Shown: piece after piece, positions 26,714 to 62,890 of the stretch
Layout of the letters: each line of letters begins with the position of its first letter
Numbering within the stretch: the stretch's first letter is position 1
Assembly (NCBI GenBank): GCA_001772615.1
Contig: MEUZ01000004.1
Span: 8,455 to 72,454 of the forward strand
Origin: a candidate division WWE3 bacterium RIFCSPHIGHO2_01_FULL_40_23
GTDB taxonomy: Bacteria > Patescibacteriota > WWE3 > UBA101185 > 2-01-FULL-41-18
Direction: 5' to 3'
Length of the DNA: 64,000 nt
The notes under the pieces: generated by a model
What the model saw: only the letters and a program-made list of their open reading frames with translations
Databases searched by the model: none
What the model was told of the DNA's origin: nothing
Translations under genes and position numbers: made by a program

Positions 26714-28543
26714 ATGACCAAAACAAGAAACGACATTAGAAATATCGCAATAATTGCCCATGTTGACCACGGAAAGACCACACTCGTGGATGGAATGCTA
26801 AAGCAAACTAAAGTTTTCAGGGAAAACCAGGCTGAAATGAACCAGGATACAATTCTTGATTCAAACCAACTTGAAAGAGAAAAAGGAATTACAATCTTTG
26901 CCAAAAATGCGTCTATTCACTACAGGGGCATCAAAATAAACATAATTGATACCCCGGGTCATGCAGATTTTGGCGGAGAAGTGGAAAGGGTTTTAAACAT
27001 GGCGGACGGAGCACTATTAATAGTTGATTCATCGGAAGGGCCAATGGCCCAAACCAAGTTTGTTCTAAAGAAAGCTCTTGATCTAAACCTTAAGATTATC
27101 CTTGTTATAAATAAACTGGACAAAAAAGACCAAAGATCGAAAGAGGTTTTAAAACTCACGGAACACCTTTTCCTGGACCTCTCCAAAAATGATGAACAAC
27201 TTCATTTCCCCGTAATTTATGCTATTGGAAGAGAAGGAAAAGCCTACAGCTCATTTGAAGACTTCAAACAAAATAAATCTCAAAATCTTATTCCGCTCCT
27301 TGATAAGATAATTGACTTTTTTCACGGTCCGAATGTCAGCGAAACAGACCCCTTTCAAATGCTTGTTACTTCTCTTGATTTTGATTCACATCTTGGAAAA
27401 CACGCAATTGGTAAAGTGTTGTCAGGTAGCGTTAAAAAAGGAAACGAGCTAAAACTCTTTGGTAAACATGAGTCATCCCTAGTCAAAGTTGAAAAAGTTC
27501 TCGTTACAGAAGGTCTCTCAAAATTAGAGGTGCCTGAAGCAAAGGCCGGTGAGATTGTAACACTTGTCGGAATTTCCGGTGCCAAAATCGGGGATACTAT
27601 TGCAGGTAAATCCATAGAAAAAGCGCTTCCTAGAATAGAAGTTACTGAACCAACTTTAAAAATAACAATCGGAGCAAACACTTCACCTTTTTCAGGACTT
27701 GAAGGAAAGTATGTTACTTCAAGAGTCCTTGGTGAGAGGCTAATGCAGGAAGTTGAAACAAATGTAGCTTTAAATGTTGTCCCTAATCCAAATGGCAATG
27801 ACTTCATTGTGTCTGGAAGAGGCGAGCTTCATCTTGCAGTATTAATTGAAACCTTAAGAAGAGAAGGATTTGAACTTCAAGTTTCAAGGCCCGAAGTTAT
27901 ATACAAAGAAAAAGACGGAAAAACGCTTGAACCCATAGAAGATGTAATTATTGAGGTTAAAGATAGTTTTATAGGAAATATAACATCTGAAATGGGCGGG
28001 AGAAGAGCAAAACTTCTTGATATGAAAAGCGATGGGAGCGGGAATACGCATCTGGAATATAAAATACCGGTGAAAAATCTTCTTGGCTTTAGATCACAGT
28101 TTTTAACCCTGACCAAAGGGACAGGGGTAGTTAATACATCATTTCATGGCTATGAACCTGCTTTGGAATTTAACACAAAACTAAGAAACGGTGTTTTAAT
28201 AGCTTCGGATTCTGGTACTGCGACTCTTAACGGTCTGGAAGTAGCGCAGGGTAGGGGAGTAACTTTTATTTATCCAGGAACAAAAGTGTATGAAGGGATG
28301 ATTATTGGATTAAACACAAGAAGTGAAGATATTGAAATAAATGTTGTAAAAGAAAAAACGCTAACTAACGTGAGAAGTGGAAATGACGCACGAGGTATTC
28401 TCCTTTCCCCTCCAAAAATATTAAGCCTTGAAGAAGCGCTCACCTTTATAGAAGGAGATGAGTTGTTAGAAGTTACTCCCAAAAACCTACGGCTTAGAAA
28501 AAGAATTCTAAAGAAAGACTTAAGATACAAATCAAAAAGATAG
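26714..28543 (+). CDS. typA: translational GTPase TypA/BipA
   Basis: NIAIIAHVDHGKTTLVD G1, DTPGHADF G3, NKLD G4, EF-G-like domains and BipA C-terminal domain. Confidence 0.95.
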   Translation: MTKTRNDIRNIAIIAHVDHGKTTLVDGMLKQTKVFRENQAEMNQDTILDSNQLEREKGITIFAKNASIHYRGIKINIIDTPGHADFGGEVERVLNMADGALLIVDSSEGPMAQTKFVLKKALDLNLKIILVINKLDKKDQRSKEVLKLTEHLFLDLSKNDEQLHFPVIYAIGREGKAYSSFEDFKQNKSQNLIPLLDKIIDFFHGPNVSETDPFQMLVTSLDFDSHLGKHAIGKVLSGSVKKGNELKLFGKHESSLVKVEKVLVTEGLSKLEVPEAKAGEIVTLVGISGAKIGDTIAGKSIEKALPRIEVTEPTLKITIGANTSPFSGLEGKYVTSRVLGERLMQEVETNVALNVVPNPNGNDFIVSGRGELHLAVLIETLRREGFELQVSRPEVIYKEKDGKTLEPIEDVIIEVKDSFIGNITSEMGGRRAKLLDMKSDGSGNTHLEYKIPVKNLLGFRSQFLTLTKGTGVVNTSFHGYEPALEFNTKLRNGVLIASDSGTATLNGLEVAQGRGVTFIYPGTKVYEGMIIGLNTRSEDIEINVVKEKTLTNVRSGNDARGILLSPPKILSLEEALTFIEGDELLEVTPKNLRLRKRILKKDLRYKSKR

Positions 28544-29166: not shown

Positions 29167-30975
29167 ATGATTTATAAGGACACTATGAGCAAAATGAAAA
29201 AAGAATTAAAAAATGATCCGCTAATGCCGATGAGACATTCCTGTGAGCATGTTTTACATCAGGCTATGGTTGAACTTTATCCAGGATTAAAAAGAGCAAT
29301 GGGTCCGGCAACGGCCGAGGGCTTCTACCACGATTTTGATTACGATGGAAAAATATCGGAAGAAGACTTTTCTAAAATTGAAGAGAGAATGACAGAAATT
29401 ATTAGGAGAGACCTTCCCTTTATCAAAGAAGAGATATCCGTAAATGAAGCCAAGAAATTATTTTCAGATAACGAGTACAAACTGGATTGGATAAACGATA
29501 TAAAAGACAGGGGAGAAAAACTAACGATTTACTGGACGGGAAAACCCCACGAAAAAGGCTCCAACGTTGACCTTTGCGCCGGTCCTCATGTCTCTTCAAC
29601 GGGAAAAATCGGCCCATTTAAACTCTTAAGCATTGCAGGCGCCTACTGGCATGGAAATGAAAAAAACAAAATGCTTACAAGAATTTACGGTACCTGCTTT
29701 GAGAAGAAAGAAGATCTTGATAAGTACCTTAAGCAACTAGAAGAAGCCAAAAAAAGAGATCACAGAAAGCTTGGTCAGGAACTTGACCTTTTCTCGTTTG
29801 CGGATGAGGTTGGCCCGGGACTTGTCCTTTGGTCACCAAAAGGCGCCATTATAAGAGAGGAGCTTGAAAAACTTGCCAAAGAAACCGAAAAAAAGTTGGG
29901 ATATCAAAGGGTTGCAACTCCCCATATAGCAAAGCACACACTCTTTGAAATATCAGGACATCTTCCTTATTACAAAGACGACATGTACAGTCCCATGATG
30001 ATAGAAGGCGAGGAATATTACCTTAAAGGCATGAACTGCCCTCACCATCATATGATCTATAAGTCCAAAAAAAGATCGTATAAAGAGCTCCCTCTAAGAT
30101 ACGCTGAATACGGAATGGTTTACAGGTTTGAACAATCAGGCGCCTTATTTGGATTAATGAGGGTAAGAAGCATTTGCCAAAATGACGCTCACATATATTG
30201 CACGGAGGAACAGGCTGAAGAGGAATTCCTGAAAGTTTTAGAGCTTCATGACTTTTACTATAAATTATTCGGATTAACAAGAGATGATTACTATATAGTT
30301 ATGGGCCTTCCCGATCCCAAGAAAAAGGATAAGTACCACGGTGATAAGGCTTTGTGGGATAAAGCGGAAAAGCTGATGAGAGGCGCAATAAGTAAATCAG
30401 GCATGCACTCGGTTGATGATATAGGTGGCGCGGCGTTTTACGGTCCAAAAATAGACATAAATATTAGATCAGTAACTGGTAGAGAATTCGGAGCCTCAAC
30501 CAACCAGCTTGACCTTTACATGCCGGGGCGATTTAACCTTACGTATACTGATAAAGACGGGTCAGAAAAGCTTTGCGTTGCAATCCACAGAGCTCCGCTT
30601 GGTTCACATGAAAGATTCATAGGCTTTCTAATTGAGCACTTCGCGGGTGCATTCCCCGTGTGGCTCTCACCGGTGCAAGTAAAAATTATCCCGATTTCAG
30701 AAAACGAGCTTTCCTACGCCCGTAAAATTGAAGCAAACCTTGATGAAGCCGGGTTAAGGGCAGAGGTTGATGATAGATCTGAAACAATGCAGGCAAAAAT
30801 AAGAGACGCCCAGCTTCAAAAAGTGCCTTACATGTTTATAATTGGGAAAAAGGAATCGGAAGCTGGTACCATAAGCATTAGGTTGAGAACAGGCGAAAAC
30901 ATTCCTGATGTAAAAGAGGACGAGGCCATAGGCAGAGTTTTAAAGATGTATAAGGAAAGAAGCCTTGATCTCTAA
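29167..30975 (+). CDS. thrS: threonyl-tRNA synthetase (lacks N-terminal TGS domain)
   Basis: Editing-domain RHSCEHVLHQA, class II motifs and zinc site MNCPHHHMIY..CQNDAHIYC, C-terminal anticodon-binding domain. Confidence 0.95.
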   Translation: MIYKDTMSKMKKELKNDPLMPMRHSCEHVLHQAMVELYPGLKRAMGPATAEGFYHDFDYDGKISEEDFSKIEERMTEIIRRDLPFIKEEISVNEAKKLFSDNEYKLDWINDIKDRGEKLTIYWTGKPHEKGSNVDLCAGPHVSSTGKIGPFKLLSIAGAYWHGNEKNKMLTRIYGTCFEKKEDLDKYLKQLEEAKKRDHRKLGQELDLFSFADEVGPGLVLWSPKGAIIREELEKLAKETEKKLGYQRVATPHIAKHTLFEISGHLPYYKDDMYSPMMIEGEEYYLKGMNCPHHHMIYKSKKRSYKELPLRYAEYGMVYRFEQSGALFGLMRVRSICQNDAHIYCTEEQAEEEFLKVLELHDFYYKLFGLTRDDYYIVMGLPDPKKKDKYHGDKALWDKAEKLMRGAISKSGMHSVDDIGGAAFYGPKIDINIRSVTGREFGASTNQLDLYMPGRFNLTYTDKDGSEKLCVAIHRAPLGSHERFIGFLIEHFAGAFPVWLSPVQVKIIPISENELSYARKIEANLDEAGLRAEVDDRSETMQAKIRDAQLQKVPYMFIIGKKESEAGTISIRLRTGENIPDVKEDEAIGRVLKMYKERSLDL

Positions 30976-31014
30976 AAATGATACAAACAACCATACCGTT
31001 AGTGAGTAATCCTG

Positions 31015-34000
31015 ATGAAAATACACATTAAACAAAAACGCTTCAAACTTAAGTCTTTCTTCAGATTGCCAACGTTACTTGGCAGCTTTGTTATTATAAT
31101 AGTCCTGCTTGTTATTTTCATTCGCCTCACACTGTCGCCTGCGGCGGCAGCCTGGTTCGATGACTCATACAGCTACCGTGTCAAATTCACCTTCACCCAT
31201 GACACCGATATTTCCAGTGAGCGCTCTATCACCTACACCCTGGATACTCTGGAATTGACCACTGCCAATATCATGCAAGATGACTGTGACGACATCAGGT
31301 TCACCGATATCAATGGCAAGATCCTCCGCTTTCAGATGACCGGCTCCTGTAGTTCCGCCACCAACACTTTTGAAGTCGTCTTTCCCACGATTGTCAATGG
31401 CACCAACGTCGGCTACGCCTACTACTCCAACCCCGCCGCCGTCTCGGCCAGCGTCGACGTCTCCGACGTCACCGCTCTCACTCCCTCCGGCGGCGATCCT
31501 TCCGACTCCAACCCCACCGCCAATGACGAAGTCGGCCCCGGCCCCATCGCCTACTGGAAATTTGACGAAGGCGCCGAAAACACTTGCTCCGGCGGCAGCA
31601 ATGACGCCTGCGACAGTGCAAGGGGCACAGGCGGTAATCTAGATTTGGCCTTCGATAACTCAGCCGGTACCACCCCAGACTACGTCACGGAAGACCGGTG
31701 TATTTCCGGCAAATGCGTGATTTTATACGACGACAACGACAACCCTTACCTCTACACCGCTAACGGCTTTCCATTTCCCACCACGGATTTTACATATTCT
31801 TTTTGGTTTCGCCATACCGACACGGCTACCGGTGCCGTAGACGCAGGCTGGCTAGTACTTTATACAAATAGTGATGGCTCAACCGAATTTGAAATCAGAA
31901 TAGGTTCCAATCAAAACATCGTTGTAAACACCAACGGAGGAGCCAGCGAGATTACCAGCGTCGTCACCCTCGACAACGGCCGTTGGTACCATGTTGTCGC
32001 TACCAGAACCGGGTCCTCACTAAGCCTTTATCTCAACGGGATTCTCGACACTCAAGTCTCCAACGCCTCGGCCATGACCTACTCCGGTTGCTCGCTTATT
32101 ATTGGCACGGACGACCAAGGAGCCGACTGTGCCGTTCCTCTTCTGGACGCTGATATTACTAACAATTTCACCGGCTCCATCGACGAACTCAAAGTCTACG
32201 ATCGTGGATTGACCGCCGCCCAGGTCAAATCCGAGTACTTAATTGGCACCACAGCTAAGGGCAGCAGCGTTTCTATCTCCGCTCCCCAAGTCAAATATCT
32301 CTCCGATGAACTTGACGCTTACTGGCCAATGGACGAGAGCGGAAGCACCTCTCCGGTCGACTACAGCGGTTTTCAAAACACCCTCACACGAATCGCCAGC
32401 CCCACTATGGTTTCGGCAAAATTTGGTAACGGTGCCGACCTGGAGAGCGGCAGTTCCCAATACTTCACCAGATCAGACCGCATCGAGTATTCCATCACCG
32501 GCAGTTTGACTTTGGCTGCCTGGATCAAGCCCGAATCGGTTACTGCCTCTACCCTATTCGATATAGTAGGCAAGTTCGACGACGCCAATGAATCCTATCA
32601 ACTCTCCCAATATGGCGATGAAATCCGCATGTACATCGACTCCAGCTCCAACTACGCCACCACCGACGCTGCCAATTTGGCCACCGGTACCTGGTATCAT
32701 GTTGCGGGGGTCTATGACGCCACCAGCCAATCTGTCGCCATTTATATCAACGGTTCACTCGCCAGCTCCACCGTCACCGGAACAATACCTAGTGGTATCG
32801 GTAACGACGCCGGCGTCTTCCACATCGGCGCCGAGGATTCAACCACCGGCGGCGACGCCCCGGGAAACTTTTACGACGGGATAATCGACGAAGTTCGCAT
32901 GTATAGCCGGGCTCTCCCGGCTAAAGACGTCTCCAGTCTCTACACCTTCGCCCCCGGCCCGGTCGGCTGGTGGAAGCTCGATGAAAATTCCGGGACCACC
33001 GCTTTTGATTCCAGTAACAAAGGCAACAATCTCACTCTCACCAACGGCCCGGCTTGGGTCCCAGGGAAACAGGGATCTGCCCTCGAATACGACGGTAATA
33101 CCCAGTGCGCCATCAATTCCGCTACCTCCGGCATCGCCCCCATCACCGATATGACAGTCGCGGCCTGGGTCTACGCCCGCGCCCCCGCTGCTGACGACGA
33201 CGCCATTATTAATCTCTCCGGCACCGACGAGACCGAAGCCGAGAACGTCAATTTCTACTTCTTTATCAATGACACCAATAATGTTTTACGCCTCACATGG
33301 GAGCACGGAGGGGGCGTCAACGACATCATCAGTTCCACCGTCGCCCCGGCCATCAAATCCGGACAATGGGTTCATTTCGCCGCCACCCGAAACACCTCCA
33401 CCAACGAAGTCATGTTCTACGAAAACGGTATCCAGCTGGGAACCACGGTTTCTTACACCAACGACCCCTCCGGCGGCACATCCGACCAACGTCTAGACAT
33501 CGGCCATGAAAGTTCCACCTGTCTCAGCGGAACCAATGAAGGCTTCAACGGCAAAATCAGCGACGTCATCGTCTATAACTACGTCCGTACAGGGAAGCAA
33601 ATCATCGAGGACCTAAACGCCGGGCATCCGACCATAGGTACTGTTGGTTCCTATGTTGCCCATTGGGATATGGATGATGCCACCGGCACAATCGCCCAGG
33701 ACACTTCTATAAACAATAACGATCTTACTCTTTCTACCGCTTCTTGGACTCTCCAAGGCAAGTTTAATTCAGCCTGGAATGGTAATGGGACTTCTCGTCT
33801 AGCACCGGCTTTAGGCAACAATCCCGATTTTGATTTCTCTGCCACTGAAGACTTTACTCTCTCCATCTGGTTTAAGTCGGATCTTGCCGGAAACCCAACT
33901 GCCACCGAATACCTAGCCGCCAATGGAGGACCTTCCGGTTCTGCAGGCTATGCTCTCTATGCTACTGACACCAATGGCTTTATTTGTTTTGGCATAGATG

Positions 34001-35799
34001 ACGACGCCTCTTGGGGACCAGACGTTTCCGCCTGCACAACCTCCGATTACTATGACAATACCTGGCATCATATCGTAGGTGTAAGAAATGTCACAGCTGA
34101 TACTATTTACATCTATATTGACGGAGTATTAAAAGGCCAGACTGCTGATACCACATCTGCTACCCTGGATAGTAACGGCACTTTTCGTCTTGGCGACATA
34201 GACACCGACGACGCGGCTTCCGGGGAGGAGTTGGCAGGCGATTTGGATGAGGTCAAAGTCTACCGCCTGGCCCTTTCAGCCTCCGATGTGAAGCTTGAAT
34301 ACAATCGTGCTTCAAGTTTAGTTCTCGGATCTCTCTCGACAGAATCCGACGGCTTGACCACGACCTCTTCAGCTGCCTCCGCCTTCTGCATCCCCGGCGA
34401 TACTACTAGCTGTAATCCCCCAGTCGGCTATTGGAAACTGGACGACAACACCGGAACCACCGCCGTGGACTCCTCCGGTAATGGCAACAACGGTTCGTTC
34501 GTGGGCAGTCCTTCCTGGGGTTCAGGCTGCAAATCCGGTAGCTGCATTACCACCCAGATGAACGGGGTAGAAGACAACGTCAACATCCCAAATCCTGCTA
34601 ACGATGTTTTCGACTTTCCTCCCGGCACAGATTTTACCGCCCAAGTTTGGGTAAAAATTATTAACAAGGAGGACTATGTCCAACCACTATTTAGGGGAGG
34701 TAGCAGCGTGGGAACAAATGGCTATGAGGTGGAGGTCCACACAACTACAAAACTGTCCCAATGTGGGTACGCGGACGGTACAACTAGAGATGTCGCTACC
34801 GGAACAACTGCCCTCGTTGACGGCCGATGGCATTTTATCTCCTGCGTCATGGATCGAAATGGCACAGCCACCGGAACAGTAGGACTCCACGTTTTTGTCG
34901 ATGGGGTCTTGGAAGGTTCAGACACTAGCCTCGGAGCGGTTAATAACTTCGACAACACCCGAGCTATAGAAATCGGCGAACGCAGTAATTCTACAGAGTT
35001 CGACGGTTCCACCGACATGGCCGCTATCTACAACTACGCCCGTACCCGAGCCCAAGTCGCCTGGGACTTCAACCGCGGCGTGCCAATAGCCTATTGGGAT
35101 TTTGACGAATGCCAAGGTGCTACCATTCATGACGCTTCCACCAAGTCTGATCTGCGTTCTACCGGCATAAACGGCACCATAACCCTGGGAGGGTCACCAT
35201 CTTTAGGAGACTGCACCACTGCCGCCACTGCATGGGGCAACGGGGCCACAGGTAAATATAACTCCTCTTTAGATTTTGACGGTTCAGACGATTATATTCT
35301 TTTTGGCGACGTTCTTGATCAAACAACGAACGATTTCACTTTTTCAGCCTGGATTAAAAGGGGTGATGACACCACTAATCACGAAATAGTGTCAAAAGGC
35401 GGTGCGGCGGAACCAAGTTATTCCTTTGGCATAGATGGCGCAACCGACGTTTTAAGACTCATCGTAAGAGATAGCGGCGGACAAACCACTGCCGATAGTA
35501 CCCGGACTGTCAACGACACCAATTGGCATCATGTCGTGGTAGTCGCAGACCGCGATGCCAACGCCACTTTTTATATTGACGGCACTCCAGCAGGGACCGT
35601 TGACATTTCGACCAGAACCGGCACTCTTGCCAATGGTGATAACTTTGAAATAGGACGTTCCCGTGATCAAACAACCGTCGCCAACGGATTAATTGATGAT
35701 CTGCGTATCTTTAACTACGCTCTTACTGCCACACAAATCAAAATCTTATATAATCAAAGCAGTTCGGTTAGATTCGGCCCGGAAACAGGCACACCATAA
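31015..35799 (+). CDS. giant secreted protein (1594 aa): DUF2341-like N-terminus followed by multiple concanavalin A-like lectin/LamG domains (MshQ-like)
   Basis: Signal anchor; N-terminal WFDDSYSYRVKFTFTH resembles the DUF2341 W..W.YR..I.I motif; at least four repeats ending in D(E/D)(L/V)(K/R)(V/I)(Y/F)..ALtaaq(V/I)..(L/E)Y typical of LamG_3 jelly-rolls; GC-rich third codon positions unlike every neighbouring gene. Confidence 0.8.
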   Translation: MKIHIKQKRFKLKSFFRLPTLLGSFVIIIVLLVIFIRLTLSPAAAAWFDDSYSYRVKFTFTHDTDISSERSITYTLDTLELTTANIMQDDCDDIRFTDINGKILRFQMTGSCSSATNTFEVVFPTIVNGTNVGYAYYSNPAAVSASVDVSDVTALTPSGGDPSDSNPTANDEVGPGPIAYWKFDEGAENTCSGGSNDACDSARGTGGNLDLAFDNSAGTTPDYVTEDRCISGKCVILYDDNDNPYLYTANGFPFPTTDFTYSFWFRHTDTATGAVDAGWLVLYTNSDGSTEFEIRIGSNQNIVVNTNGGASEITSVVTLDNGRWYHVVATRTGSSLSLYLNGILDTQVSNASAMTYSGCSLIIGTDDQGADCAVPLLDADITNNFTGSIDELKVYDRGLTAAQVKSEYLIGTTAKGSSVSISAPQVKYLSDELDAYWPMDESGSTSPVDYSGFQNTLTRIASPTMVSAKFGNGADLESGSSQYFTRSDRIEYSITGSLTLAAWIKPESVTASTLFDIVGKFDDANESYQLSQYGDEIRMYIDSSSNYATTDAANLATGTWYHVAGVYDATSQSVAIYINGSLASSTVTGTIPSGIGNDAGVFHIGAEDSTTGGDAPGNFYDGIIDEVRMYSRALPAKDVSSLYTFAPGPVGWWKLDENSGTTAFDSSNKGNNLTLTNGPAWVPGKQGSALEYDGNTQCAINSATSGIAPITDMTVAAWVYARAPAADDDAIINLSGTDETEAENVNFYFFINDTNNVLRLTWEHGGGVNDIISSTVAPAIKSGQWVHFAATRNTSTNEVMFYENGIQLGTTVSYTNDPSGGTSDQRLDIGHESSTCLSGTNEGFNGKISDVIVYNYVRTGKQIIEDLNAGHPTIGTVGSYVAHWDMDDATGTIAQDTSINNNDLTLSTASWTLQGKFNSAWNGNGTSRLAPALGNNPDFDFSATEDFTLSIWFKSDLAGNPTATEYLAANGGPSGSAGYALYATDTNGFICFGIDDDASWGPDVSACTTSDYYDNTWHHIVGVRNVTADTIYIYIDGVLKGQTADTTSATLDSNGTFRLGDIDTDDAASGEELAGDLDEVKVYRLALSASDVKLEYNRASSLVLGSLSTESDGLTTTSSAASAFCIPGDTTSCNPPVGYWKLDDNTGTTAVDSSGNGNNGSFVGSPSWGSGCKSGSCITTQMNGVEDNVNIPNPANDVFDFPPGTDFTAQVWVKIINKEDYVQPLFRGGSSVGTNGYEVEVHTTTKLSQCGYADGTTRDVATGTTALVDGRWHFISCVMDRNGTATGTVGLHVFVDGVLEGSDTSLGAVNNFDNTRAIEIGERSNSTEFDGSTDMAAIYNYARTRAQVAWDFNRGVPIAYWDFDECQGATIHDASTKSDLRSTGINGTITLGGSPSLGDCTTAATAWGNGATGKYNSSLDFDGSDDYILFGDVLDQTTNDFTFSAWIKRGDDTTNHEIVSKGGAAEPSYSFGIDGATDVLRLIVRDSGGQTTADSTRTVNDTNWHHVVVVADRDANATFYIDGTPAGTVDISTRTGTLANGDNFEIGRSRDQTTVANGLIDDLRIFNYALTATQIKILYNQSSSVRFGPETGTP

Positions 35800-35847
35800 T
35801 AGAAGTCTTGATCTATAAAGGTATTTATGATAACTTAGCTTAGTTTA

Positions 35848-36357
35848 ATGGATACAAAAAGGTACTTTACCAACGAAAAGATTAGAGCACAGAACCTAAG
35901 GATTATTAACTCCAAAGGTGAGAACATAGGGGTGGTGACAAAAGGGGAAGCTCTAAGGATGGCCAGGGAGGAAAAACTAGATCTTGTGGAAATAGCGCCA
36001 AATGCCAACCCTCCCGTAGCAAAGATCCTTGATTTTAAGAAGTTTTTATATACTGAAAGGAAAAAAGCTTCCGCCGCGAGAGCCCACTCAAAGCAAACTG
36101 AACTTAAGGAATTTAAGTTCGGGCCTAATATTGGTTCAAATGATTTAAATTTAAAGATAGGGAGGGCCAAAGAATTTTTAAAAGGAAAAAACAGGGTTAA
36201 ATTTACGGTAGCTTTCAGAGGAAGGGAAAACGCTCATCCCGAAGTCGGGTGGGAAAAAATCAAAAAAGCTATTAGTGAACTGTCAGAGCTTGGGCATCCC
36301 GAAGCAGATCCAAGACTGGTTAACAAAATGATTAGCGTAACAATAGTCGCAAGTTAA
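35848..36357 (+). CDS. infC: translation initiation factor IF-3
   Basis: INEKIRAQNLRIIN..GVV...AL..A.E..LDLVEIAPNANPPVAKIL conserved IF3 N- and C-domains. Confidence 0.9.
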   Translation: MDTKRYFTNEKIRAQNLRIINSKGENIGVVTKGEALRMAREEKLDLVEIAPNANPPVAKILDFKKFLYTERKKASAARAHSKQTELKEFKFGPNIGSNDLNLKIGRAKEFLKGKNRVKFTVAFRGRENAHPEVGWEKIKKAISELSELGHPEADPRLVNKMISVTIVAS

Positions 36358-36561: not shown

Positions 36562-36909
36562 ATGACAAGAGTAAAAGGTGGTTTTAAAACAAGAAGAAGG
36601 CACAAAGAAATTAAAAAGCTTGCTAAGGGTTATTATGGAAGCAGACACAGGCTTTATAAAAGAGCATCGGATGCAGTTTTGCATAGCGGTGAATACGCAT
36701 TTGCCGGAAGAAGACAAAGAAGAAGAGATTTGAGAAGGCTCTGGATCACAAGAATTAATGCGGGTTTAAAACCTTTTAATATTAGATACAGCCATTTCAT
36801 TAAGTTGCTTAAGGATAAAAATATTGAACTTGACAGAAAAATTCTTGCGGATTTAGCCGCAACGGATTCTAAAGCTTTTGAAGAAGTGGTGGCAAAGGTA
36901 AAACAATAG
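36562..36909 (+). CDS. rplT: 50S ribosomal protein L20
   Basis: MTRVKGGFKTRRRHKEIKKLAKGYYGSR matches L20. Confidence 0.95.
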   Translation: MTRVKGGFKTRRRHKEIKKLAKGYYGSRHRLYKRASDAVLHSGEYAFAGRRQRRRDLRRLWITRINAGLKPFNIRYSHFIKLLKDKNIELDRKILADLAATDSKAFEEVVAKVKQ

Positions 36910-44893: not shown

Positions 44894-46303
44894 ATGAAAG
44901 CTTCTTACTTGCCAAGGTGGCTTCTGATACTTGTTATCTTAAGCCTAACCGTCACCCTTCCTCGGAAAGCTTCCAAACTGGAAGCCGGAGGAGGTGGGTA
45001 CACAGTATGCACCACAAGATACTCAAAAGGAGGGGTAGAATCAAACATAACCGTATACGAAAGTCCACCATCGGATGGCCTTTATGTAAGGCTTAATACA
45101 ACCGCCCAGCTAGGGTCGGTCGTAACAGAGGGTGTGAGGGTAAACGGAGAAACCATCACCGGTACCCTCCCTGTTTCCGCTACTGTGTATGCCTGGTTTA
45201 GTGTAACTACTCCGGTCGTTACAACCTACACTGTCACGGGAGAGGTTCACACGGCGGTAGTTTCCAGCTGGACGTATACTGGGACGAAGCAGTACACCGC
45301 GTGGACGCTCTATTATCCGTTAGGCACACTTGACCAGGATGTCGTTGTATACCTTAACGGTGATGAGATCCCTTGCACTCCAACTGCTAAAGTAACTGAG
45401 TGCTGGCCCGCATCGAACTTTGTAATAAGCGCTATCTTGTATCACGGGACTCAATTTAGCGCATACGTGGCTACCACGGTTGGTCCCCAAAACCAGCTTG
45501 TGGAGATTACCGTCCTGAAGGGATACCTTGAGGACAAGCCATATGACGTGAGGGTAACAGGAAGCTATCCTCCGGGCGGGAGCGCGTTTGAGAGACCAAA
45601 GAGCGAAACGCTTTGGGACGTCGGAGTAAGTTGGGTTGGGAAATACACATCATGGTACTACGTAGAATACTCCGGTACATTTTCCAGTACCATAGCCAAA
45701 CCAACACTATACGCGGCCTACAAAGTGGGTGAGAACCAACCTTTTGTTTACACTCCGTGTGTACTGGACGGGCACAATGATGAGCGTCCACCCGCGGAAG
45801 TGACGCCAACTCCAATGGCTACCCAAACAAGCACACCAACGGTTGCTTGGACTCCTACCCCCGCGGCAACACCAACCCCTACCCATACTCCAATTCCCGT
45901 TATAAGAATATGTCCGGTTGACGGGATTGAGCTACTGCCGGAAGTATCATGGACAAAGTCCGAGCCAAACGCGGGAGTTTTTGTGGAAGGGGAACCATTT
46001 ACACTTAACCGTGATACCACAATCAAGGTTTGGGCGGCAGTTGATGACCAGGCCGTAATTCAAAGGTCAGCCCTAGGCGGTTTTGCCGATTACTGGACCG
46101 ATCCCTTTAGTCCGATGCCCGGGCAAAACCTTAACTGGCCGTCAGGATGGGAGCATGAGTTAAAGGTCACACTGCCAAACGGCACCTATCGCTTTGTTGG
46201 GAGAGATACACATGAAGGCGAGGGAAACCGGTTCGGAAGTTTGCAGATCATAGGGGCTTGTGGCCTTCCCTATGATTTGTTCTTCCCTCTTGTACTCAAA
46301 TAA
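44894..46303 (+). CDS. hypothetical secreted protein with Pro/Thr-rich linker (elevated GC)
   Basis: Signal anchor, beta-rich domains separated by TPTPMATQTSTPTVAWTPTPAATPTPTHTP linker. Confidence 0.5.
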   Translation: MKASYLPRWLLILVILSLTVTLPRKASKLEAGGGGYTVCTTRYSKGGVESNITVYESPPSDGLYVRLNTTAQLGSVVTEGVRVNGETITGTLPVSATVYAWFSVTTPVVTTYTVTGEVHTAVVSSWTYTGTKQYTAWTLYYPLGTLDQDVVVYLNGDEIPCTPTAKVTECWPASNFVISAILYHGTQFSAYVATTVGPQNQLVEITVLKGYLEDKPYDVRVTGSYPPGGSAFERPKSETLWDVGVSWVGKYTSWYYVEYSGTFSSTIAKPTLYAAYKVGENQPFVYTPCVLDGHNDERPPAEVTPTPMATQTSTPTVAWTPTPAATPTPTHTPIPVIRICPVDGIELLPEVSWTKSEPNAGVFVEGEPFTLNRDTTIKVWAAVDDQAVIQRSALGGFADYWTDPFSPMPGQNLNWPSGWEHELKVTLPNGTYRFVGRDTHEGEGNRFGSLQIIGACGLPYDLFFPLVLK

Positions 46304-52164: not shown

Positions 52165-54858
52165 ATGTGGAGACTTAACAAACTTCTACTTTTCATAACA
52201 GCAATGTTAGTTTCTTTGTCAGTATTCTTTTTTTCTACATCCTCGGTAAAGGCTGACTGCCCAGAAGCATGCGTCCGCGAGGACAGCGGATGCGGTGGTC
52301 AAAGCTGGACAAGGTGTTCTACCAATAACCCATTTGACCCTGATGAAACAGCTATTTTTTGTTGCTTTGGTGGATGCAATGGCGATTGCGGCTTTGATGG
52401 GGGATGCTGCGGAGGTGGGGGCGGTTGTACAAGCTCGGGGCCGGGTGCGCCAACTAACCTTGATGTAAATCCGAAATTTGCAGCAGGCGGCTATAATCAA
52501 GTAGCCAGTGCGACTGCAACTCTTTCTTGGACGAGCGGGGGGTGGGGGAACAACTGTGACGGAAACGTTAAAAGCTACAGCGTGTACTACACAAGAGTAG
52601 CGCTTTCTTCATCCTGTCCGGCAATTGATCCTGTAAATGATGCAGGATACACACTTCTTGGTACCAACAACGACCCTGATCCAAACAGCGACTCAAATGA
52701 CCCCGGCACAGCCATGAATATTGGGAGCAGTTTAACCCAGGACACCTGCTGGTATGTAAAGGCATCAAATTACGGGAGCGCAAGGGGAGGCCCTGCGAGA
52801 TTTCATGCCCCAAGGACAGCAAATTGTTTCAATCTCACGGGAACAACTCAAGTATATGTAGGTACCCCATATGTTTACACCGCAGGTTACTCAAATTCCA
52901 ACGGGCCGCTGACAAGAGGAGGTATGGAGCTCTACAATAACGCTTCTGTATGCAGTTCACTTTGGTCTCCCGTGACCGTCGAACCTATTCCTCCCGGAAA
53001 CTATAGCTTTACATGGACACCGACCTCGCAAGGAAACTACACACTTTACTGCAGAGCTTGGAATGACGGCGTTGCCGAATGCAGAGGCGCGTGTTATTCA
53101 AATACAACAAACCCGTATAGATGTGACGGCTCAAGAGGCGGGGGAGGGGGCACTTACGTCACGATCTGTACACTTCCACAACCCCCTACAAACCTACAAC
53201 CTGTTAATGGGGCCTCCTTGACTTGTGAAACAAGTGTAACTTTATCCTGGTCACCGTCACCCGGTGCAACTAATTACGTTGTACAAATGACCGACACAAC
53301 AACGGGCGCCACTGTTCTTGACATTAATACAACCGGCTTATCACAATCAGTAAGTTCGTTAACTCCCAGCCACAACTACACTTGGAGAGTCAGACCGGTT
53401 AATGCATGCGGAATCGGGTGGGCAAGTGAAAGGTCTTCAAGCTTTACGATAAACGGCTGCACGGTATCTATCCAGGGAAATATTCATGAAAAATATGCTA
53501 CTGAAGCCTGTTCGTCGGCCCCTACCACAAGAGGGGTTGCCGACCAATCCGATGACTATGTACAAAAAACCGACCAGCCAACTTTCCAGGGTTCCATATC
53601 TTCACCCTCCGGAAGCTACACCATTACAAATGTACCTTACACAATTAGTCAAACTGGAGTTGTCTGTCCTGTTAACATAGAGCCCTCTTCACCCGGATTT
53701 TCCAGATACAGATTGGTATGTATAAACAGCCAGAACGCGGCTTCAGCAACGGGATGGACTCAAACAGGAAACTGCGCACAGTCAGGCTCTGTTTTTACAC
53801 AGGCCGCTAACGGCACGTCACTATCGCTCGATTTAGGCTATGAGTCTGTTTCCTCCGGGTGGTTCCAAACCCTTCTCGGAGATATATTCTCAAACTGCGA
53901 CTATGACACGTCTTGCTCCTACGGACTTATTAACGGAGTTCCAAGTAGTGCGGGTACTTATGACGCTCTTCCCTACACTGCAGACAATAACGATACAGGC
54001 CTTACTCCATTATCAGGCAGTACCAGGGGCGGAATTTATGGGATTCTCATTTCCAGAGCGCCCGTAGTTGCTAAAACTTCAGACGGGGACAATAGGACAG
54101 GGTATGGCATGGCTACAACCACCGCTCCAACAACACAACCTCCTTATTTTATAGAAAAGTATCAGGATTGGAGTCAATTCACTTGGCCTGCAACAGTTGA
54201 CTTTATACCTCCTGAAGGCGCTACAACAATCACAAGCTCAACAACACCAAACTGCACAAGTTTCGGAACTTCGGCCGTAGGCGGAGACGTTTACAGAATG
54301 GATATTGCATGTGCACAAAGCTTTGTTAATAGTCTTTCGGGAACTACTTATAATTGGCCGACAGATGGCACTGTAGTCTTATACGTTACCGGTGCATCAA
54401 GCACGCCGCTTAATATACAGAACATGGTAAGAACAATAGGCTTTAATGACAGGCTCATACTAATTGTTAATGGTACAGTTTCTATAAGCAGCTCCATTAA
54501 TACATGGAACGGCGCTCCTCCACCTTCCGCATTTCCAACATTTAACTCGGATCCTATGATTGACGCTACCATAATTGCTCAAGGAAGCTCATCAGGCGGA
54601 ATTGGTTTTACTTGCATCGGCGGTATTGGGGGCTGTAATGGAACTGACGGTTCAATCCTTGTGAACGGGTCTCTACTTGCAAGAGACGGCGGTATAATTT
54701 TCAGAAGGGACAGGGGGCAAATAAATAATCAATACCCTGCTGAAATCGTAAGGTATAAACTAAGAGAAATAATTGATCTAACAACCACCGAGATAACATC
54801 AAGTGTTCCTAACAAAACCGGACTTTTTGAGTATAGCGTTAGCTTTGAGGTCAGATAA
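52165..54858 (+). CDS. large secreted protein with Cys/Gly-rich N-terminal module and fibronectin type III-like domains
   Basis: Signal peptide; CCFGGCNGDCGFDGGCCGGGGGC; FN3-like segment PTNLQP..SVTLSWSPSPGATNYVVQ..YTWRVRPVN. Confidence 0.55.
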   Translation: MWRLNKLLLFITAMLVSLSVFFFSTSSVKADCPEACVREDSGCGGQSWTRCSTNNPFDPDETAIFCCFGGCNGDCGFDGGCCGGGGGCTSSGPGAPTNLDVNPKFAAGGYNQVASATATLSWTSGGWGNNCDGNVKSYSVYYTRVALSSSCPAIDPVNDAGYTLLGTNNDPDPNSDSNDPGTAMNIGSSLTQDTCWYVKASNYGSARGGPARFHAPRTANCFNLTGTTQVYVGTPYVYTAGYSNSNGPLTRGGMELYNNASVCSSLWSPVTVEPIPPGNYSFTWTPTSQGNYTLYCRAWNDGVAECRGACYSNTTNPYRCDGSRGGGGGTYVTICTLPQPPTNLQPVNGASLTCETSVTLSWSPSPGATNYVVQMTDTTTGATVLDINTTGLSQSVSSLTPSHNYTWRVRPVNACGIGWASERSSSFTINGCTVSIQGNIHEKYATEACSSAPTTRGVADQSDDYVQKTDQPTFQGSISSPSGSYTITNVPYTISQTGVVCPVNIEPSSPGFSRYRLVCINSQNAASATGWTQTGNCAQSGSVFTQAANGTSLSLDLGYESVSSGWFQTLLGDIFSNCDYDTSCSYGLINGVPSSAGTYDALPYTADNNDTGLTPLSGSTRGGIYGILISRAPVVAKTSDGDNRTGYGMATTTAPTTQPPYFIEKYQDWSQFTWPATVDFIPPEGATTITSSTTPNCTSFGTSAVGGDVYRMDIACAQSFVNSLSGTTYNWPTDGTVVLYVTGASSTPLNIQNMVRTIGFNDRLILIVNGTVSISSSINTWNGAPPPSAFPTFNSDPMIDATIIAQGSSSGGIGFTCIGGIGGCNGTDGSILVNGSLLARDGGIIFRRDRGQINNQYPAEIVRYKLREIIDLTTTEITSSVPNKTGLFEYSVSFEVR

Positions 54859-54863
54859 AGATT

Positions 54864-55784
54864 ATGAAAAGATTAAAAGAATTTAAAGAATCGGGGCAGA
54901 CACTGATATTTGTTCTTCTAGTGATGACAATCGCTCTTGCTGTTGGCATATCAATATCAACAAGAACAATTTCGGGCGTCAGGCGAACTACAAACATAGA
55001 TTCATCTGTCAGAGCCCAAGCAGCCGCTGAAGCCGCTATTGAATATTATCTCTCACGACCCGTTTCAGAGCTAAACGGCATCATAGGCAATAGTGACGTG
55101 TATGACTGCAGTGCAACCGGTGCAAGAACTTATCCGCCAGGGGGTGGATCCCTTACTTCTTCTCAAGATCAAATTAGAGCAACAGCAGATGTAGTTATTA
55201 GTAGGTATGGATGCCTTGGTTATAATACACTTTCAGATCCATATGAACTTCCAAGAGATGGCATGCTTGAAATAAAGCTAGACCCAAGAATGCTAGGGGA
55301 CAGTACAAGCTCAACTTTGGGTAGCTCCCAGAGCATAAGAATCTGCTGGGATCTTCCTCCAACAGGCTACAACCCGGCAATTTATTACCACTACATATTC
55401 GGACCACCCCCACATTATTTGATTCAAAAGATGGGGTGGAGATATAACTCAACAGATGAGGGTGAAAACTTCAAGGTAGCTACAAATTACGGCGCACCGG
55501 ACGGTTACTGCGCCACACAGGAGCTAACAACCTCGACAAGCGGCTGGCTTCCAAGAGTCTTAAGGATTACAAGCCTTTATAACTCTTCCACTGTCCGAGT
55601 TAAGATGATAAACAGTGGTGGAAGACTCCCATATCAAGGTTTTATCATTTCAGCAACGGGGATAGTCGGCGAATCGCAACAAGGAGCAAGAAGAGTAATA
55701 GAAGCGAGAAGAAGCCTTCCCCAACTCCCAGTGTTATTCAACTTCGGCTTATATTCAGGCTCTCAAACGGCACCTGTTCAGTAA
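54864..55784 (+). CDS. PilX-like minor pilin/pseudopilin (N-terminal PilX_N-type hydrophobic segment)
   Basis: GQTLIFVLLVMTIALAVGISIST N-terminus; paralog of 60354..61163. Confidence 0.5.
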   Translation: MKRLKEFKESGQTLIFVLLVMTIALAVGISISTRTISGVRRTTNIDSSVRAQAAAEAAIEYYLSRPVSELNGIIGNSDVYDCSATGARTYPPGGGSLTSSQDQIRATADVVISRYGCLGYNTLSDPYELPRDGMLEIKLDPRMLGDSTSSTLGSSQSIRICWDLPPTGYNPAIYYHYIFGPPPHYLIQKMGWRYNSTDEGENFKVATNYGAPDGYCATQELTTSTSGWLPRVLRITSLYNSSTVRVKMINSGGRLPYQGFIISATGIVGESQQGARRVIEARRSLPQLPVLFNFGLYSGSQTAPVQ

Positions 55785-55804
55785 ATTCTGATATAATTTC
55801 TCTA

Positions 55805-57706
55805 ATGAAAAAGTCGCTTGCCCTTTTTTTCATCTTTCTCCTTTTGCTTGAAATCAACATGATTTTTAAAAGCAAAAGATATTCAAGAGCCGATTCTGAC
55901 ACAACGCCGCCGACATCAACACTTTCTCAAATCCCCTCTTCTCCGGACGGGACAAATGATTGGTATGTTTCCCCAATTGACTTCACAATAACCGCAGACG
56001 ATCTTGAATCAGGTGTAAGATCTATAAGCTATAAGCTTGATTCAGACGACGTTCAAACTCAAATCTTTAATAACACCCTTAACCTTGTTCAAAACCCAAG
56101 TTTTGAGGAGGCGGGGACTCCGGTTAACCTTTGGGATAAAACAAATGACGATATCAACGCGGTATTCACACAAGATTCCATAGCGGCGCCCTCATTTGGT
56201 ACCAAATCGGCCAAGATTAGCGCAACCACGGGTACATGGAACGGTTATAACAACAGAAATAACTTTGCGGTCGCAACTTCCAATGAAAATATGACCTCAA
56301 GCCTATGGATAAAAACACAAAACGTAAACCTGCAGGTAAATTATAAAATTTATGCAGTCTACACGGGCATGGGAGGCAGTGAACAAACACAGTTAATAGC
56401 TGCAACCTCCGACATTTCAGGAACAAATGATTGGCAGAAACTCACTTTGAATTTTGTTGTAAATGTTGACAATGCTATAGGAGTTTATATGGACATGGGA
56501 ATTAAGGGGAGCGGGAGCGCGTGGTTTGACGGGGCTTCAATTACTTCAGCCTTTACACAGCCCTCGGTTGAGTTTGTGGTTTCTTCAAACGGAAGCCACA
56601 CCCTTGAATACTACAGCACCGATAACGCAGGGAACGAAGAAACCCACCAAACTACAACCTTTAAAATAGACACAAAGGCCCCAAGCCGCTTCACAAACTT
56701 TACAATTACACAAGCGGGAAACGACCATACGTTTATCGTTTCAATAAGCGTTACCGATAATACATCAGGTCTTGATACGGGAACGGCGCAGTTTCAGTAC
56801 TCGGTTGATGAAGGTGTAACATGGGGCTATTATTCTGATTTCTCAAACTGCAACTCTACTTTTACAGAGGATTGGACTAACGGCTCCACAAACCCGTCAA
56901 CATCAGGGACAAAAAACACAATTATCTCAACCCCCGCCATCGACTTTTGCAATAACAACTGGGCAGTCACCAAAAAAATCAGATTTAAAATAAAGGATCT
57001 TGCTGGAAACCAGGGCCAAAGCGCGGATTTTACAATCAATGGGGCGTGGATAGAAGTAGTAAACGGTGATATTTTCGCAAATGAGGGTATATCAATGCAG
57101 TCAAGTTCTAAGATCACTTATCTCGCAGGAGCCGTAGACGGCATATCAAACATAACTTCAACAAACAATTGGTTCCTTGAAGATTATGAAGCAATGGATT
57201 TTAGCACTTATGATGAATGGTACGCGAAAAACCCAACAACTACAGCTTTGCCTGCAGGCAAGCTCCCAACAACAAGCGGATCTTACAGAGTAAACAGCGA
57301 TTTCACAATCGCAAGTACTACTGTTCCTAACGGCCTGGATGATGTGCAAGATCTTTCGGGTTTAATCTATGTAAACGGTGATTTAAACATTAACTCTAAT
57401 TATGAGCTTCATGATACAAGCGGAATAATATTTATTGTAAAAGGTGACATTACGGTAAATAGCGCAGTTTCGTCAATTGATGGGTTCTTTATTACCGACG
57501 CTTTATTTGACCTTACAGGAGGAAACACACAAATAGATATTTTCGGGGGAGTACAGGCGGATGAATACAACATGAAAAGGTCTTTAAGCGGAAATCAGAA
57601 CTCAACAACACCCGCTCAAATCTTTACATATAAACCGAAATATCTTATTGTAGGTAAGAATCAACTTACAACAAATTCAGATGTAACATGGTTGGAAGTT
57701 AAATAA
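55805..57706 (+). CDS. large hypothetical secreted protein
   Basis: 633-aa ORF with signal peptide, beta-rich, Thr/Asn-rich. Confidence 0.45.
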   Translation: MKKSLALFFIFLLLLEINMIFKSKRYSRADSDTTPPTSTLSQIPSSPDGTNDWYVSPIDFTITADDLESGVRSISYKLDSDDVQTQIFNNTLNLVQNPSFEEAGTPVNLWDKTNDDINAVFTQDSIAAPSFGTKSAKISATTGTWNGYNNRNNFAVATSNENMTSSLWIKTQNVNLQVNYKIYAVYTGMGGSEQTQLIAATSDISGTNDWQKLTLNFVVNVDNAIGVYMDMGIKGSGSAWFDGASITSAFTQPSVEFVVSSNGSHTLEYYSTDNAGNEETHQTTTFKIDTKAPSRFTNFTITQAGNDHTFIVSISVTDNTSGLDTGTAQFQYSVDEGVTWGYYSDFSNCNSTFTEDWTNGSTNPSTSGTKNTIISTPAIDFCNNNWAVTKKIRFKIKDLAGNQGQSADFTINGAWIEVVNGDIFANEGISMQSSSKITYLAGAVDGISNITSTNNWFLEDYEAMDFSTYDEWYAKNPTTTALPAGKLPTTSGSYRVNSDFTIASTTVPNGLDDVQDLSGLIYVNGDLNINSNYELHDTSGIIFIVKGDITVNSAVSSIDGFFITDALFDLTGGNTQIDIFGGVQADEYNMKRSLSGNQNSTTPAQIFTYKPKYLIVGKNQLTTNSDVTWLEVK

Positions 57707-58745: not shown

Positions 58746-58746
58746 A

Positions 58747-59340: not shown

Positions 59341-59341
59341 C

Positions 59342-62750: not shown

Positions 62751-62796
62751 CCTGGCATTAATGTTATATAAGAAGAGTAGGGGAGTCAATCAGAGC

Positions 62797-62890
62797 ATGT
62801 CATTCCAGACCTGCCTGCTGCAAGCAGGCACATAATCTGGGATATCTACAGAAGATCCGACGGGATCCCTGCTTTCGCAGGGATGACATC
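62797..62890 (+). repeat. structured inverted-repeat element, copy B (atgtcattcc..ccctgctttcgcagggatgacat)
   Basis: Same termini and internal tttcgc hairpin as copy A, plus hairpin gcctgctgcaagcaggc; lies 47 nt upstream of the pilin gene start on the minus strand. Confidence 0.6.

Follow-up and report, generated by a model that had tools for sequence, protein, structure and literature searches.

A giant multi-LamG surface protein gene between thrS and infC of a candidate division WWE3 bacterium, probably acquired by horizontal transfer within the candidate phyla radiation

Surface proteins with concanavalin/LamG domains have been proposed as attachment factors of symbionts from the candidate phyla radiation (CPR), and genes for such domains are also carried by CPR phages (PMC11310336, PMC12911398). 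Here we describe a giant gene of this class from candidate division WWE3 bacterium RIFCSPHIGHO2_01_FULL_40_23, found in a stretch of 64,000 nucleotides (nt) that we refer to as the window (assembly GCA_001772615.1, contig MEUZ01000004.1, positions 8,455 to 72,454). The gene is an uninterrupted open reading frame (ORF) on the plus strand, running from ATG to stop at window positions 31015-35799 and encoding 1594 amino acids (aa). It lies exactly between thrS and infC, as a first-pass annotation of the sequence had noted, and the ORF itself, the Pfam assignments of its neighbours and a predicted signal peptide all agree with that description of a secreted-protein gene. With the concanavalin/LamG surface proteins of CPR and DPANN organisms it shares the fold class, the kind of organism, the groundwater habitat and the presumed role (PMC11310336, PMC12911398). 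The reports in question deal with the class in general and mention copies on phages, whereas for the present family no full-length member was found among the viral contigs of IMG/VR, only single LamG domains. The reading that we consider most probable, at roughly 0.78, is that of an intact gene for a Sec-exported multi-LamG surface protein, acquired horizontally as a single-gene insert from an Amesbacteria-type source and composed as a mosaic of modules.

MshQ, a protein with a DUF2341-plus-LamG-type architecture, is a second point of comparison. It belongs to the MSHA type IVa pilus of Vibrio cholerae, where it is the PilY1 analogue; it is a putative adhesin of ~1200 residues encoded directly after the minor pilins mshDOP (PMC12918778, PMC7096442), and it is predicted to dock on a PilK-like pilin via its extreme C-terminal strand (PMC12918778). 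DUF2341 itself carries an annotation as a type IV pilus-like system component, and archaeal pilus loci encode large proteins that contain it (PMC4858521, PMC11809585). Compared by description, MshQ and the WWE3 protein are both large and secreted, and the conserved extreme C-terminus of the WWE3 protein's family could donate a strand in the way proposed for MshQ (PMC12918778). However, MshQ has ~1200 aa and its gene sits beside mshDOP, whereas the gene described here lies between thrS and infC and encodes six LamG modules in 1594 aa, and no sequence-family match in NCBIfam links the two proteins. The only NCBIfam match was to TafC (NF052521), at 176.9 bits against a cut-off of 410. TafC is a subunit of haloarchaeal Tat-fimbriae (PMC11821415), and the match comprised five stretches over the LamG-type part of the profile (positions 149-365). 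As it stays below the cut-off and concerns a protein of the Tat route, instead of the Sec-type route seen here, from another domain/kingdom context, the likeness is at the domain level only.

In sequence, the protein resembles a group of Patescibacteria giants annotated as "DUF2341 domain-containing" or "LamG-like jellyroll fold domain-containing", with which it is collinear at 28-44% identity. They have in common a signal peptide, an N-terminal domain with the signature AWFDDxYxYRxKFTFTH, six LamG modules, paired cysteines and the C-terminal end VRFGPxTGxP. The present gene differs from them in its WWE3 host, its position at a housekeeping junction, its donor-type codon usage and a set and order of modules that is unique among the sequences compared. 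In the manner of its insertion the locus recalls att-type islets at gene 3' ends. The hallmark of integrase-mediated elements is that they integrate at a gene's 3' end and restore that gene through duplication of the core sequence; here as well a direct repeat lies over the end of the target, the target is restored and the inserted DNA is of foreign composition. Unlike such islets, the insert lacks an integrase, further cargo and a recognisable att partner, and it consists of exactly one gene.

We surveyed the thrS-centred loci of 80 GTDB species representatives for the positions of thrS, infC, rplT, pheS and LamG homologues. Where infC was in reach (~40 Patescibacteria loci), it mostly begins ~40-200 bp after thrS with no gene of this kind in between, so that the synteny check proposed by the first-pass annotation came out in its favour. 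The two genes are directly adjacent in the closest relatives, L003 (threonyl-tRNA synthetase, ThrRS, 76% identical) and L007, and in the WWE3 genomes L005 and L014, and no LamG homologue was found within 10 kb of thrS in the ~40 related loci. In the window, thrS (threonyl-tRNA synthetase, 602 aa, 29167-30975, plus strand; Pfam tRNA-synt_2b, HGTP_anticodon and tRNA_SAD) and infC (initiation factor IF3, 169 aa, 35848-36357, plus strand; Pfam IF3_N and IF3_C) are both native genes; they now lie 4.8 kb apart, and the 3' end of thrS is the insertion point. Unrelated small genes were seen at the thrS-infC junction of three Microgenomates-type loci (L017 4520-6725, L020 6348-7190 and L025 11773-13360), including in L025 two ORFs that resemble a split transposase and are putatively assigned as such. 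The junction is occasionally invaded by unrelated DNA in other lineages. We considered whether it is a shared hot spot and rejected this, as the genes in L017, L020 and L025 are unrelated and have no common repeat signature.

Both borders of the insert carry a copy of a 19-nt direct repeat (family D15). The left copy, AGAAGCCTTGATCTCTAAA (30958-30976, plus strand), consists of the last five thrS codons (RSLDL), the stop codon and one further base. The right copy, AGAAGTCTTGATCTATAAA (35801-35819, plus strand), contains RSLDL-stop again and begins one base past the stop of the LamG gene. The copies are identical at 17/19 positions, which 0/1000 shuffles reached, and further copies with up to 2 mismatches were found neither in the window nor in 3.66 Mb of fetched loci. 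Directly after the right copy comes GGTATTTATGATAACTTAGC, which can be aligned to the spacer between thrS and infC in L003 and L007. As the right copy is followed by the ancestral spacer, it is best understood as the relic of the ancestral thrS terminus. The insert delimited in this way is 4843 bp long and contains only a 38-nt leader (30977-31014, plus strand, read directly from the sequence), which extends without a terminator from the thrS stop to the start of the LamG gene, and the ORF, whose stop codon lies 1 nt before the repeat.

A polarity is seen in the two positions at which the copies differ. Compared with the relatives' AGC CTT GAT TTA TAA, the left copy is ancestral at the first mismatch and derived at the second, and the right copy shows the reverse. 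This pattern suggests a reciprocal crossover within the central CTTGATCT between the resident site and a similar incoming one. We therefore propose that the gene may have entered by recombination within the 19-nt sequence overlapping the last five thrS codons and the stop. Such a crossover would have restored the end of thrS in full, with a relic copy remaining ahead of the former thrS-infC spacer, and a hypothetical circular 4.8-kb form of the insert would carry AGAAGTCTTGATCTCTAAA. No mosaic is seen at the 3' end of thrS, where the G+C content at third codon positions (GC3) is flat at 0.36-0.48 and the identity profiles to L003, L007 and L005 run parallel. Co-transfer of the 3' part of thrS was ruled out by these parallel profiles and by the flat course of both GC3 and third-position C.

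Insertion at the thrS 3' end with a duplicated core that restores the gene could also be read as the trace of an auxiliary gene brought in by a phage, or of an element, be it a prophage or an integrative element, that was aimed at this end and has since decayed. The concanavalin/LamG genes reported in CPR phages (PMC11310336, PMC12911398) and an HTH_17 (excisionase-like) gene near the closest homologue would fit such an origin. We give it a slim chance, since the insert consists of this ORF only, with neither an integrase nor a phage gene, and the IMG/VR matches are confined to single LamG domains. A transposon or integron was rejected on similar grounds, as terminal inverted repeats and attC-like structures are missing.

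The WWE3 gene belongs to a Patescibacteria-wide collinear family of DUF2341 + 6xLamG proteins. Among the matches listed, there were >100 full-length collinear homologues of 28-44% identity, mostly 1500-1600 aa in length, in Amesbacteria, Levybacteria, Woesebacteria, Shapirobacteria, Roizmanbacteria and other Patescibacteria. Alignment coverage was 98-100% for dozens of them, with invariant columns over the whole length, and a metagenome scan yielded 78 further loci of the family. As the family is widespread in Patescibacteria, the transfer would be one between candidate phyla inside the CPR and not from outside. The gene had been taken as foreign to the lineage; this holds for the WWE3 genome in which it was found but not for Patescibacteria as a whole.

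The closest relatives of the gene are on four contigs (L083, L084, L085 and L095) that are 51-53% GC throughout. A prolyl-tRNA synthetase (ProRS) encoded on L084 is 100% identical to that of Candidatus Amesbacteria bacterium RIFCSPHIGHO2_02_FULL_47_9, which belongs to the Microgenomates group and stems from the same sample series as the WWE3 host. We infer that the source was an Amesbacteria-type Microgenomates lineage of ~47-53% GC from the same aquifer and the recipient a WWE3 bacterium of 40% GC. An apparent thrS match near the L084 and L085 homologues, which would have placed thrS next to the gene on the donor side, proved to be ProRS (22% identity, opposite strand), and homologous recombination via a shared thrS flank is therefore unsupported.

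The composition of the gene sets it apart from its surroundings. Its GC content is 0.52, as compared to ~0.38 in the flanks, and its GC3 of 0.573 is the highest of about 55 ORFs in the window, for which 0.28-0.41 is typical, with a central value of ~0.33. After correction for amino acid content the GC3 excess is +0.209 (z = 5.1 relative to the other window genes). The contrast between GC-rich third positions in the gene and AT-rich ones in its neighbours, described in the first-pass annotation, is thereby confirmed. The antisense ORFs that it mentioned are also there: the gene contains 16 short ORFs of 60-98 aa, 9 of them antisense. The bias concerns C-ending and not G-ending codons (GCC 83 vs GCG 9, ACC 98 vs ACG 9, GTC 52 vs GTG 9). 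TCC and GGC are favoured as well, and CGC/CGT is used for arginine in place of the AGA of the host. In relative synonymous codon usage (RSCU) the gene shows no correlation with the rest of the window (r = 0.00), with L003 (-0.01) or with L005 (-0.08); the values are 0.80 for the L084 homologue and 0.90 for the genes flanking the homologue on L095. We propose that the gene may retain the C-ending codon usage of the donor lineage.

To this must be added what is usual for the family. In the other loci the family gene exceeds its flanks by only +0.03 in GC. In GC3, for which we used the 45 loci among L083-L161 that had enough flanking sequence, the difference is +0.009 +/- 0.050 (maximum +0.107), as against +0.227 for the window copy (z = 4.4). 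The ratio C/(C+G) at third positions is 0.66 in family genes vs 0.56 in their flanks and is higher in the family gene at 36/45 loci, independent of host GC. A third-position preference for C over G is thus a mild intrinsic trait of the family. The ratio is 0.81 in the window copy and 0.80-0.83 in the copies on L083, L084, L085 and L095, which have a GC3 of 0.53-0.62.

An intrinsic preference of this kind would fit an alternative in which the gene is ancestral at this site and was lost from the relatives, its codon usage being a property of the family that arose, for example, by selection for C-ending codons. Two further observations agree with it, namely that the L084 homologue differs in RSCU from its own flanks and that the gene is present in all sampled conspecific contigs. 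We nevertheless judge it very improbable. Elsewhere the family tracks the GC3 of its host, which the window copy does not do; the thrS-terminus relic downstream of the gene demands an insertion event; 0 of the ~40 related loci have the gene at or near the site; and it is another candidate phylum that holds the best-matching modules, the N-terminal block reaching 84% nt identity.

A number of points do weigh against acquisition in the form that we propose. The RSCU of the gene correlates only poorly with the housekeeping flanks of L084 (r = 0.14). Because of this and of the family preference for C over G, the donor signal is partly confounded with a family trait, and the codon signature is to that extent a trait of the family and not of a donor genome. 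The nearest homologue is 44% identical overall, with 71-84% nt identity in the shared modules, so that the true donor must be regarded as unsampled. Pfam searches detected no recombinase, transposase, integrase or phage gene in the insert, terminal inverted repeats and an attC-like structure were not found at it, and the 19-mer was not found beside any other family gene; the mechanism of integration outlined above derives from one repeat pair. No conspecific strain with an empty site was found among the sampled contigs, and the event cannot be dated since the nearest relative with an empty site is only 76% identical in ThrRS. The binding function, the localisation and the expression of the protein are all predictions from sequence or models. 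Taken together, we conclude that horizontal acquisition is well supported by the empty sites in relatives, the 19-nt repeat with its relic, the family baseline and the donor-like lineage, and we thus arrive at the earlier view of a horizontally acquired adhesin-like gene in a translation operon.

When the protein was compared by module with its closest homologues, P0002 and P0003 (both Amesbacteria-type), the identity changed abruptly along the sequence. The region aa 47-175 is 83-91% identical to both, over a family background of ~54%. LamG module 4 with its linker (aa 851-1135) is 70-76% identical to them (73-76% in the matches to P0002 775-1058 and P0003 785-1068), where the background is ~36%, whereas LamG modules 1, 2, 5 and 6 are at the family background (26-36%). 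LamG module 3 (aa 649-850) is 75% identical to P0002 1059-1259. This segment comes after the LamG4-like segment of P0002 (775-1058), and two adjacent modules are therefore in swapped order. For LamG module 5 the best match (54%) is the neighbouring 2097-aa paralogue on L083/L095, and for LamG module 2 the best matches (55-57%) are P0043, P0024, P0077, P0012 and P0005 from other lineages and not P0002/P0003. LamG modules 1 and 6 are orphans among the sequences compared, with at most 36% and 45% identity, respectively, to any of them. The same blocks are seen at the nucleotide level by blastn, in which window 31147-31572 matched L083/L095 at 84.4%, 32967-33590 matched L083 12503-13123 at 74.7% and 33574-34476 matched L083 11652-12551 at 71.2%; window 34334-34553 is 80.7% identical to the neighbouring paralogue (L083 7764-7983).

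The boundaries of the blocks coincide with the module-opening motif ...[AG][YWH]W[KDP]xD[ED]... (aa 179-185, 651-657 and 1138-1144) and, in one further case, with the domain-end motif at aa 849-855. Apart from these motifs (repeat families D1 and D3), the gene contains no notable DNA repeats. The six LamG modules are mutually only 21-41% alike, which argues for exchange between genes and not for recent internal duplication. The alignments thus show a gene assembled by shuffling of LamG modules between paralogues, with breakpoints at the ...GYWKxDE junction motif, and its module set and order are unlike those of any other family sequence compared. The shuffling would have taken place before or during the transfer. 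On L083 (1-18874) and L095, two family paralogues of 2097 aa and 1526 aa are encoded in tandem; the second is the closest homologue, and the pair is followed by an MG2-domain protein, a 1328-aa protein and the HTH_17 (excisionase-like) gene. Tandem paralogues of this kind are a likely substrate for module shuffling. As a separate observation, GC3 is at its lowest within the gene in a segment of LamG module 4 (window 33715-34314, aa ~900-1100), with 0.40-0.46 as compared to 0.61-0.69 in the L084 homologue, and LamG4 is the LamG module best conserved with the Amesbacteria homologues.

In a metagenome-derived contig, a GC-rich gene between AT-rich neighbours could be an assembly chimera in which the gene of a GC-rich organism has been joined to WWE3 sequence. 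Many independent assemblies indeed end inside the LamG gene, at window ~31400-31560 and ~32400-32450, and some of the contig ends run on into unrelated DNA of ~68% GC; L251 4168-4338 is a further stretch of note in this respect. Strain heterogeneity or confusion with repeats shared across genomes could cause these breaks. However, independent ENA, Logan, JGI and NCBI assemblies contain the order thrS-LamG gene-infC at 99-100% identity, and independent assemblies built by different pipelines from different samples read across both junctions at 100% identity. The ORF is moreover intact and closely spaced to both neighbours, with the thrS-end repeat on both sides. As the same locus recurs in independent assemblies, we attach practically no weight to a chimera. 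Five contigs (L245, L246, L249, L251 and L256) were considered as carriers of an alternative cassette or an empty site and discarded, since they have the same sequence at >=99% identity; their differing gene calls result from antisense or frameshifted calls on fragments and from N-runs. Single-nucleotide differences between assemblies appear concentrated in the LamG gene. Most of them are near contig ends or beside N-runs, and for that reason we make no claim of diversifying selection.

The N-terminus (aa 1-46, 31015-31152, plus strand) has a positively charged n-region, a hydrophobic stretch at aa 18-36 and an A-x-A in front of the invariant W47. The hydropathy peak at aa 18-36 is 2.96, the next best value elsewhere in the protein being 0.97, and the motif AxAAW is conserved in the family. 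This segment is predicted to be a Sec signal peptide or signal anchor. The protein contains 20 cysteines in closely spaced pairs, several of which are invariant in the family, as would be expected outside the cell. The protein matches identically a hypothetical protein of the WWE3 bacterium. In the NCBI protein model P0001 (1508 aa) the start is placed 86 codons late, at M87, and window 31015-31275 is thereby left out, so that the model lacks the signal peptide as well as the first part of the conserved N-terminal domain. The start of the 1594-aa form is the one supported by the alignment of the family.

Following the signal peptide is a DUF2341-like beta-sandwich with a linker (aa 47-175, 31153-31539, plus strand), the most conserved module. 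The earlier call of a DUF2341-like N-terminus could be sustained only by way of the homologues. In the protein itself the match to DUF2341 (PF10102; aa 90-148) is sub-threshold, at 17.8 bits vs 23.4 (E = 0.0046), whereas the domain was detected in 14/20 aligned full-length homologues (E <= 1e-3, best 2e-9), and the N-terminal region is the best-conserved part of the family alignment. A search with aa 47-175 against an index of 5.8 billion proteins gave two matches, a number limited by the word index; P0121, which is 60% identical to aa 47-175, carries PF10102. Judged through these family members, the N-terminal domain appears to be homologous to DUF2341. In an AlphaFold2 model of aa 44-425 it forms a beta-sandwich with a predicted local distance difference test (pLDDT) score of about 90, followed by a LamG jelly-roll.

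The remainder of the protein is made up of LamG modules. The first-pass annotation had counted at least four; the repeats are real, and Pfam finds six, with Laminin_G_3 (PF13385) matching in six stretches at 456.2 bits against a cut-off of 27.6 (E = 3.5e-138). The same family matched in 20/20 aligned full-length homologues, and there were weaker Pfam matches to related jelly-roll families. All modules are on the plus strand: LamG1 (aa 176-425, 31540-32289; Laminin_G_3/Laminin_G_2), LamG2 (aa 426-648, 32290-32958; Pfam, and a PDB sequence match to 4qvs), LamG3 (aa 649-850, 32959-33564) and LamG4 with its linker (aa 851-1135, 33565-34419), both delimited by blastp by domain and blastn, LamG5 (aa 1136-1350, 34420-35064; best-match search and nucleotide identity) and LamG6 (aa 1351-1576, 35065-35742; best Laminin_G_3 stretch aa 1422-1576, and a confident AlphaFold2 domain). 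Structure prediction had been suggested for single repeats, and the AlphaFold2 models of LamG1 and LamG6 are all-beta jelly-rolls. The protein ends in a conserved tail, ...SSVRFGPETGTP and stop (35743-35799, plus strand), in which G1588, P1589, G1592 and P1594 are at least 90% conserved and which in the family reads ...AVRFGPxTGxP. In the model of aa 1351-1594, the last 11 residues have a pLDDT < 50 and no secondary structure, next to a confident LamG6, and the tail is therefore predicted to be unstructured in the monomer.

A Foldseek search against the PDB, dominated by the LamG module, returned lectin-type jelly-rolls at E ~1e-9 to 1e-10 and nothing specific to the N-terminal domain. Among the matches were the lectin-like Hc-N subdomain of clostridial neurotoxins, the lectin domain of trans-sialidase, GH43 carbohydrate-binding modules and a Bacteroides carbohydrate-binding protein. 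The PDB sequence search gave only an S-layer-domain protein (4qvs) and a pentraxin. These folds suggest multivalent binding of glycans or surface polymers, by which the protein may attach the ultrasmall cell to a host cell or matrix. The reading that the models support is that of a multivalent cell-surface binding protein, putatively of the class of CPR-symbiont attachment factors. A function as an extracellular carbohydrate-active enzyme, of the glycosidase or trans-sialidase-like kind, seems highly unlikely to us. It could be argued from weak Pfam matches of family members to the Sialidase N-terminal, TS_C and 3keto-disac_hyd families and from the fold matches to GH43 arabinanase and trans-sialidase entries, but all of these concern non-catalytic lectin or carbohydrate-binding-module-type jelly-roll parts, and no catalytic domain was detected in the 1594 aa by Pfam, NCBIfam or PDB sequence search.

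The first-pass annotation had likened the protein to MshQ-type pilus-associated adhesins and pointed to a type IV pilus locus 17 kb downstream. The locus is real. PilM, PilN and PilO are encoded at 57714-60076, 22 kb downstream of the gene, and four prepilin-motif genes lie on the minus strand at 61166-63948, at a distance of 25 kb or more. The gap is thus 22-28 kb and is no evidence of linkage. The MshQ assignment itself is not established: the gene is neither in nor next to a pilus operon, NCBIfam gave no MshQ-type match but only the sub-threshold one to TafC, and the name MshQ is absent among the 120 listed homologues. "MshQ-like" is accordingly a weakly supported label that denotes resemblance and not demonstrated membership.

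It is a separate question whether the protein could be the CPR counterpart of MshQ/PilY1, a type IV pilus tip adhesin whose tail docks on a minor-pilin complex by beta-strand addition. This would be a refinement of function and is compatible with horizontal acquisition. The ties of DUF2341 to type IV pilus-like systems and archaeal pilus loci (PMC4858521, PMC11809585) and the docking of MshQ proposed via an extreme C-terminal strand (PMC12918778) would fit a family whose tail is highly conserved and unstructured in the monomer model, and the window genome has a type IV pilus locus with four prepilin-like genes. Prepilin-motif ORFs were also ~10-fold commoner near family genes than in the thrS control loci, although these are housekeeping loci and may understate the background frequency of pilins. 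Prepilin genes confirmed by N_methyl lie directly downstream of the family gene in 3/79 homologue loci (L089, L090 and L097), whereas about 74/79 have no prepilin gene in reach. The clearest case of a family member in a pilin cluster is L090 (156-18625), where a 3242-aa ORF without a Pfam match lies directly upstream and three N_methyl prepilin genes and a TPR/Wzy_C protein lie downstream. On the other side, the WWE3 gene is inside a translation operon far from the pilus genes, its closest homologues adjoin giant surface proteins, an MG2 protein and HTH_17 instead of pilins, and a conserved tail that is disordered might just as well serve in sorting or anchoring. We therefore regard a pilus-tip function as unlikely, though worth keeping in view.

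With respect to the surrounding genes, BipA (26714-28543) is encoded upstream of thrS. Downstream of infC are L20 (rplT, 36562-36909) and then PheS and PheT, and in identical contigs L35 is called between infC and rplT. A scan of the junctions gave terminator- and promoter-like sites at no more than shuffle expectation. Since there is no terminator between the LamG gene and either thrS or infC, it is probably co-transcribed with both. Three large fn3/Big_13-type proteins are encoded at 52165-57706. The second-strongest compositional outlier of the window is a plus-strand gene at 44894-46303 (GC 0.507, GC3 0.489, corrected excess +0.132). Its 469-aa product has a signal peptide and a Thr/Pro-rich linker and no Pfam match, and no homologue was found in the loci of relatives, which cover that position in part. 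Possibly this gene, too, encodes an acquired surface protein.

That surface adhesins are transferred horizontally and evolve by modules is familiar. What is new here is the transfer between CPR phyla, the integrase-free single-gene segment with its duplicated thrS terminus, and the shuffled LamG modules. The locus offers a clean and well-bounded case of a giant adhesin-like gene that would have moved from a Microgenomates lineage of Amesbacteria type to WWE3 in a shared aquifer, where it landed in a translation operon that is highly conserved and stayed intact. The conserved free tail and the occasional pilin neighbours provide a testable link to type IV pili. As a speculation that we hold to be distinctly doubtful, the family could be the missing PilY1/MshQ-type tip adhesin of CPR type IV pili, docked by its conserved C-terminal tail, with its host or ligand specificity re-programmed by shuffling at the GYWKxDE junctions and by integrase-free exchange of single-gene cassettes between co-resident CPR phyla, one of which would have been caught here at the end of thrS. 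If true, this would offer a concrete molecular approach to the choice and change of hosts by ultrasmall episymbiotic bacteria. If surface specificity is traded and recombined in the way suggested by the present gene, the host range of such symbionts could shift quickly.

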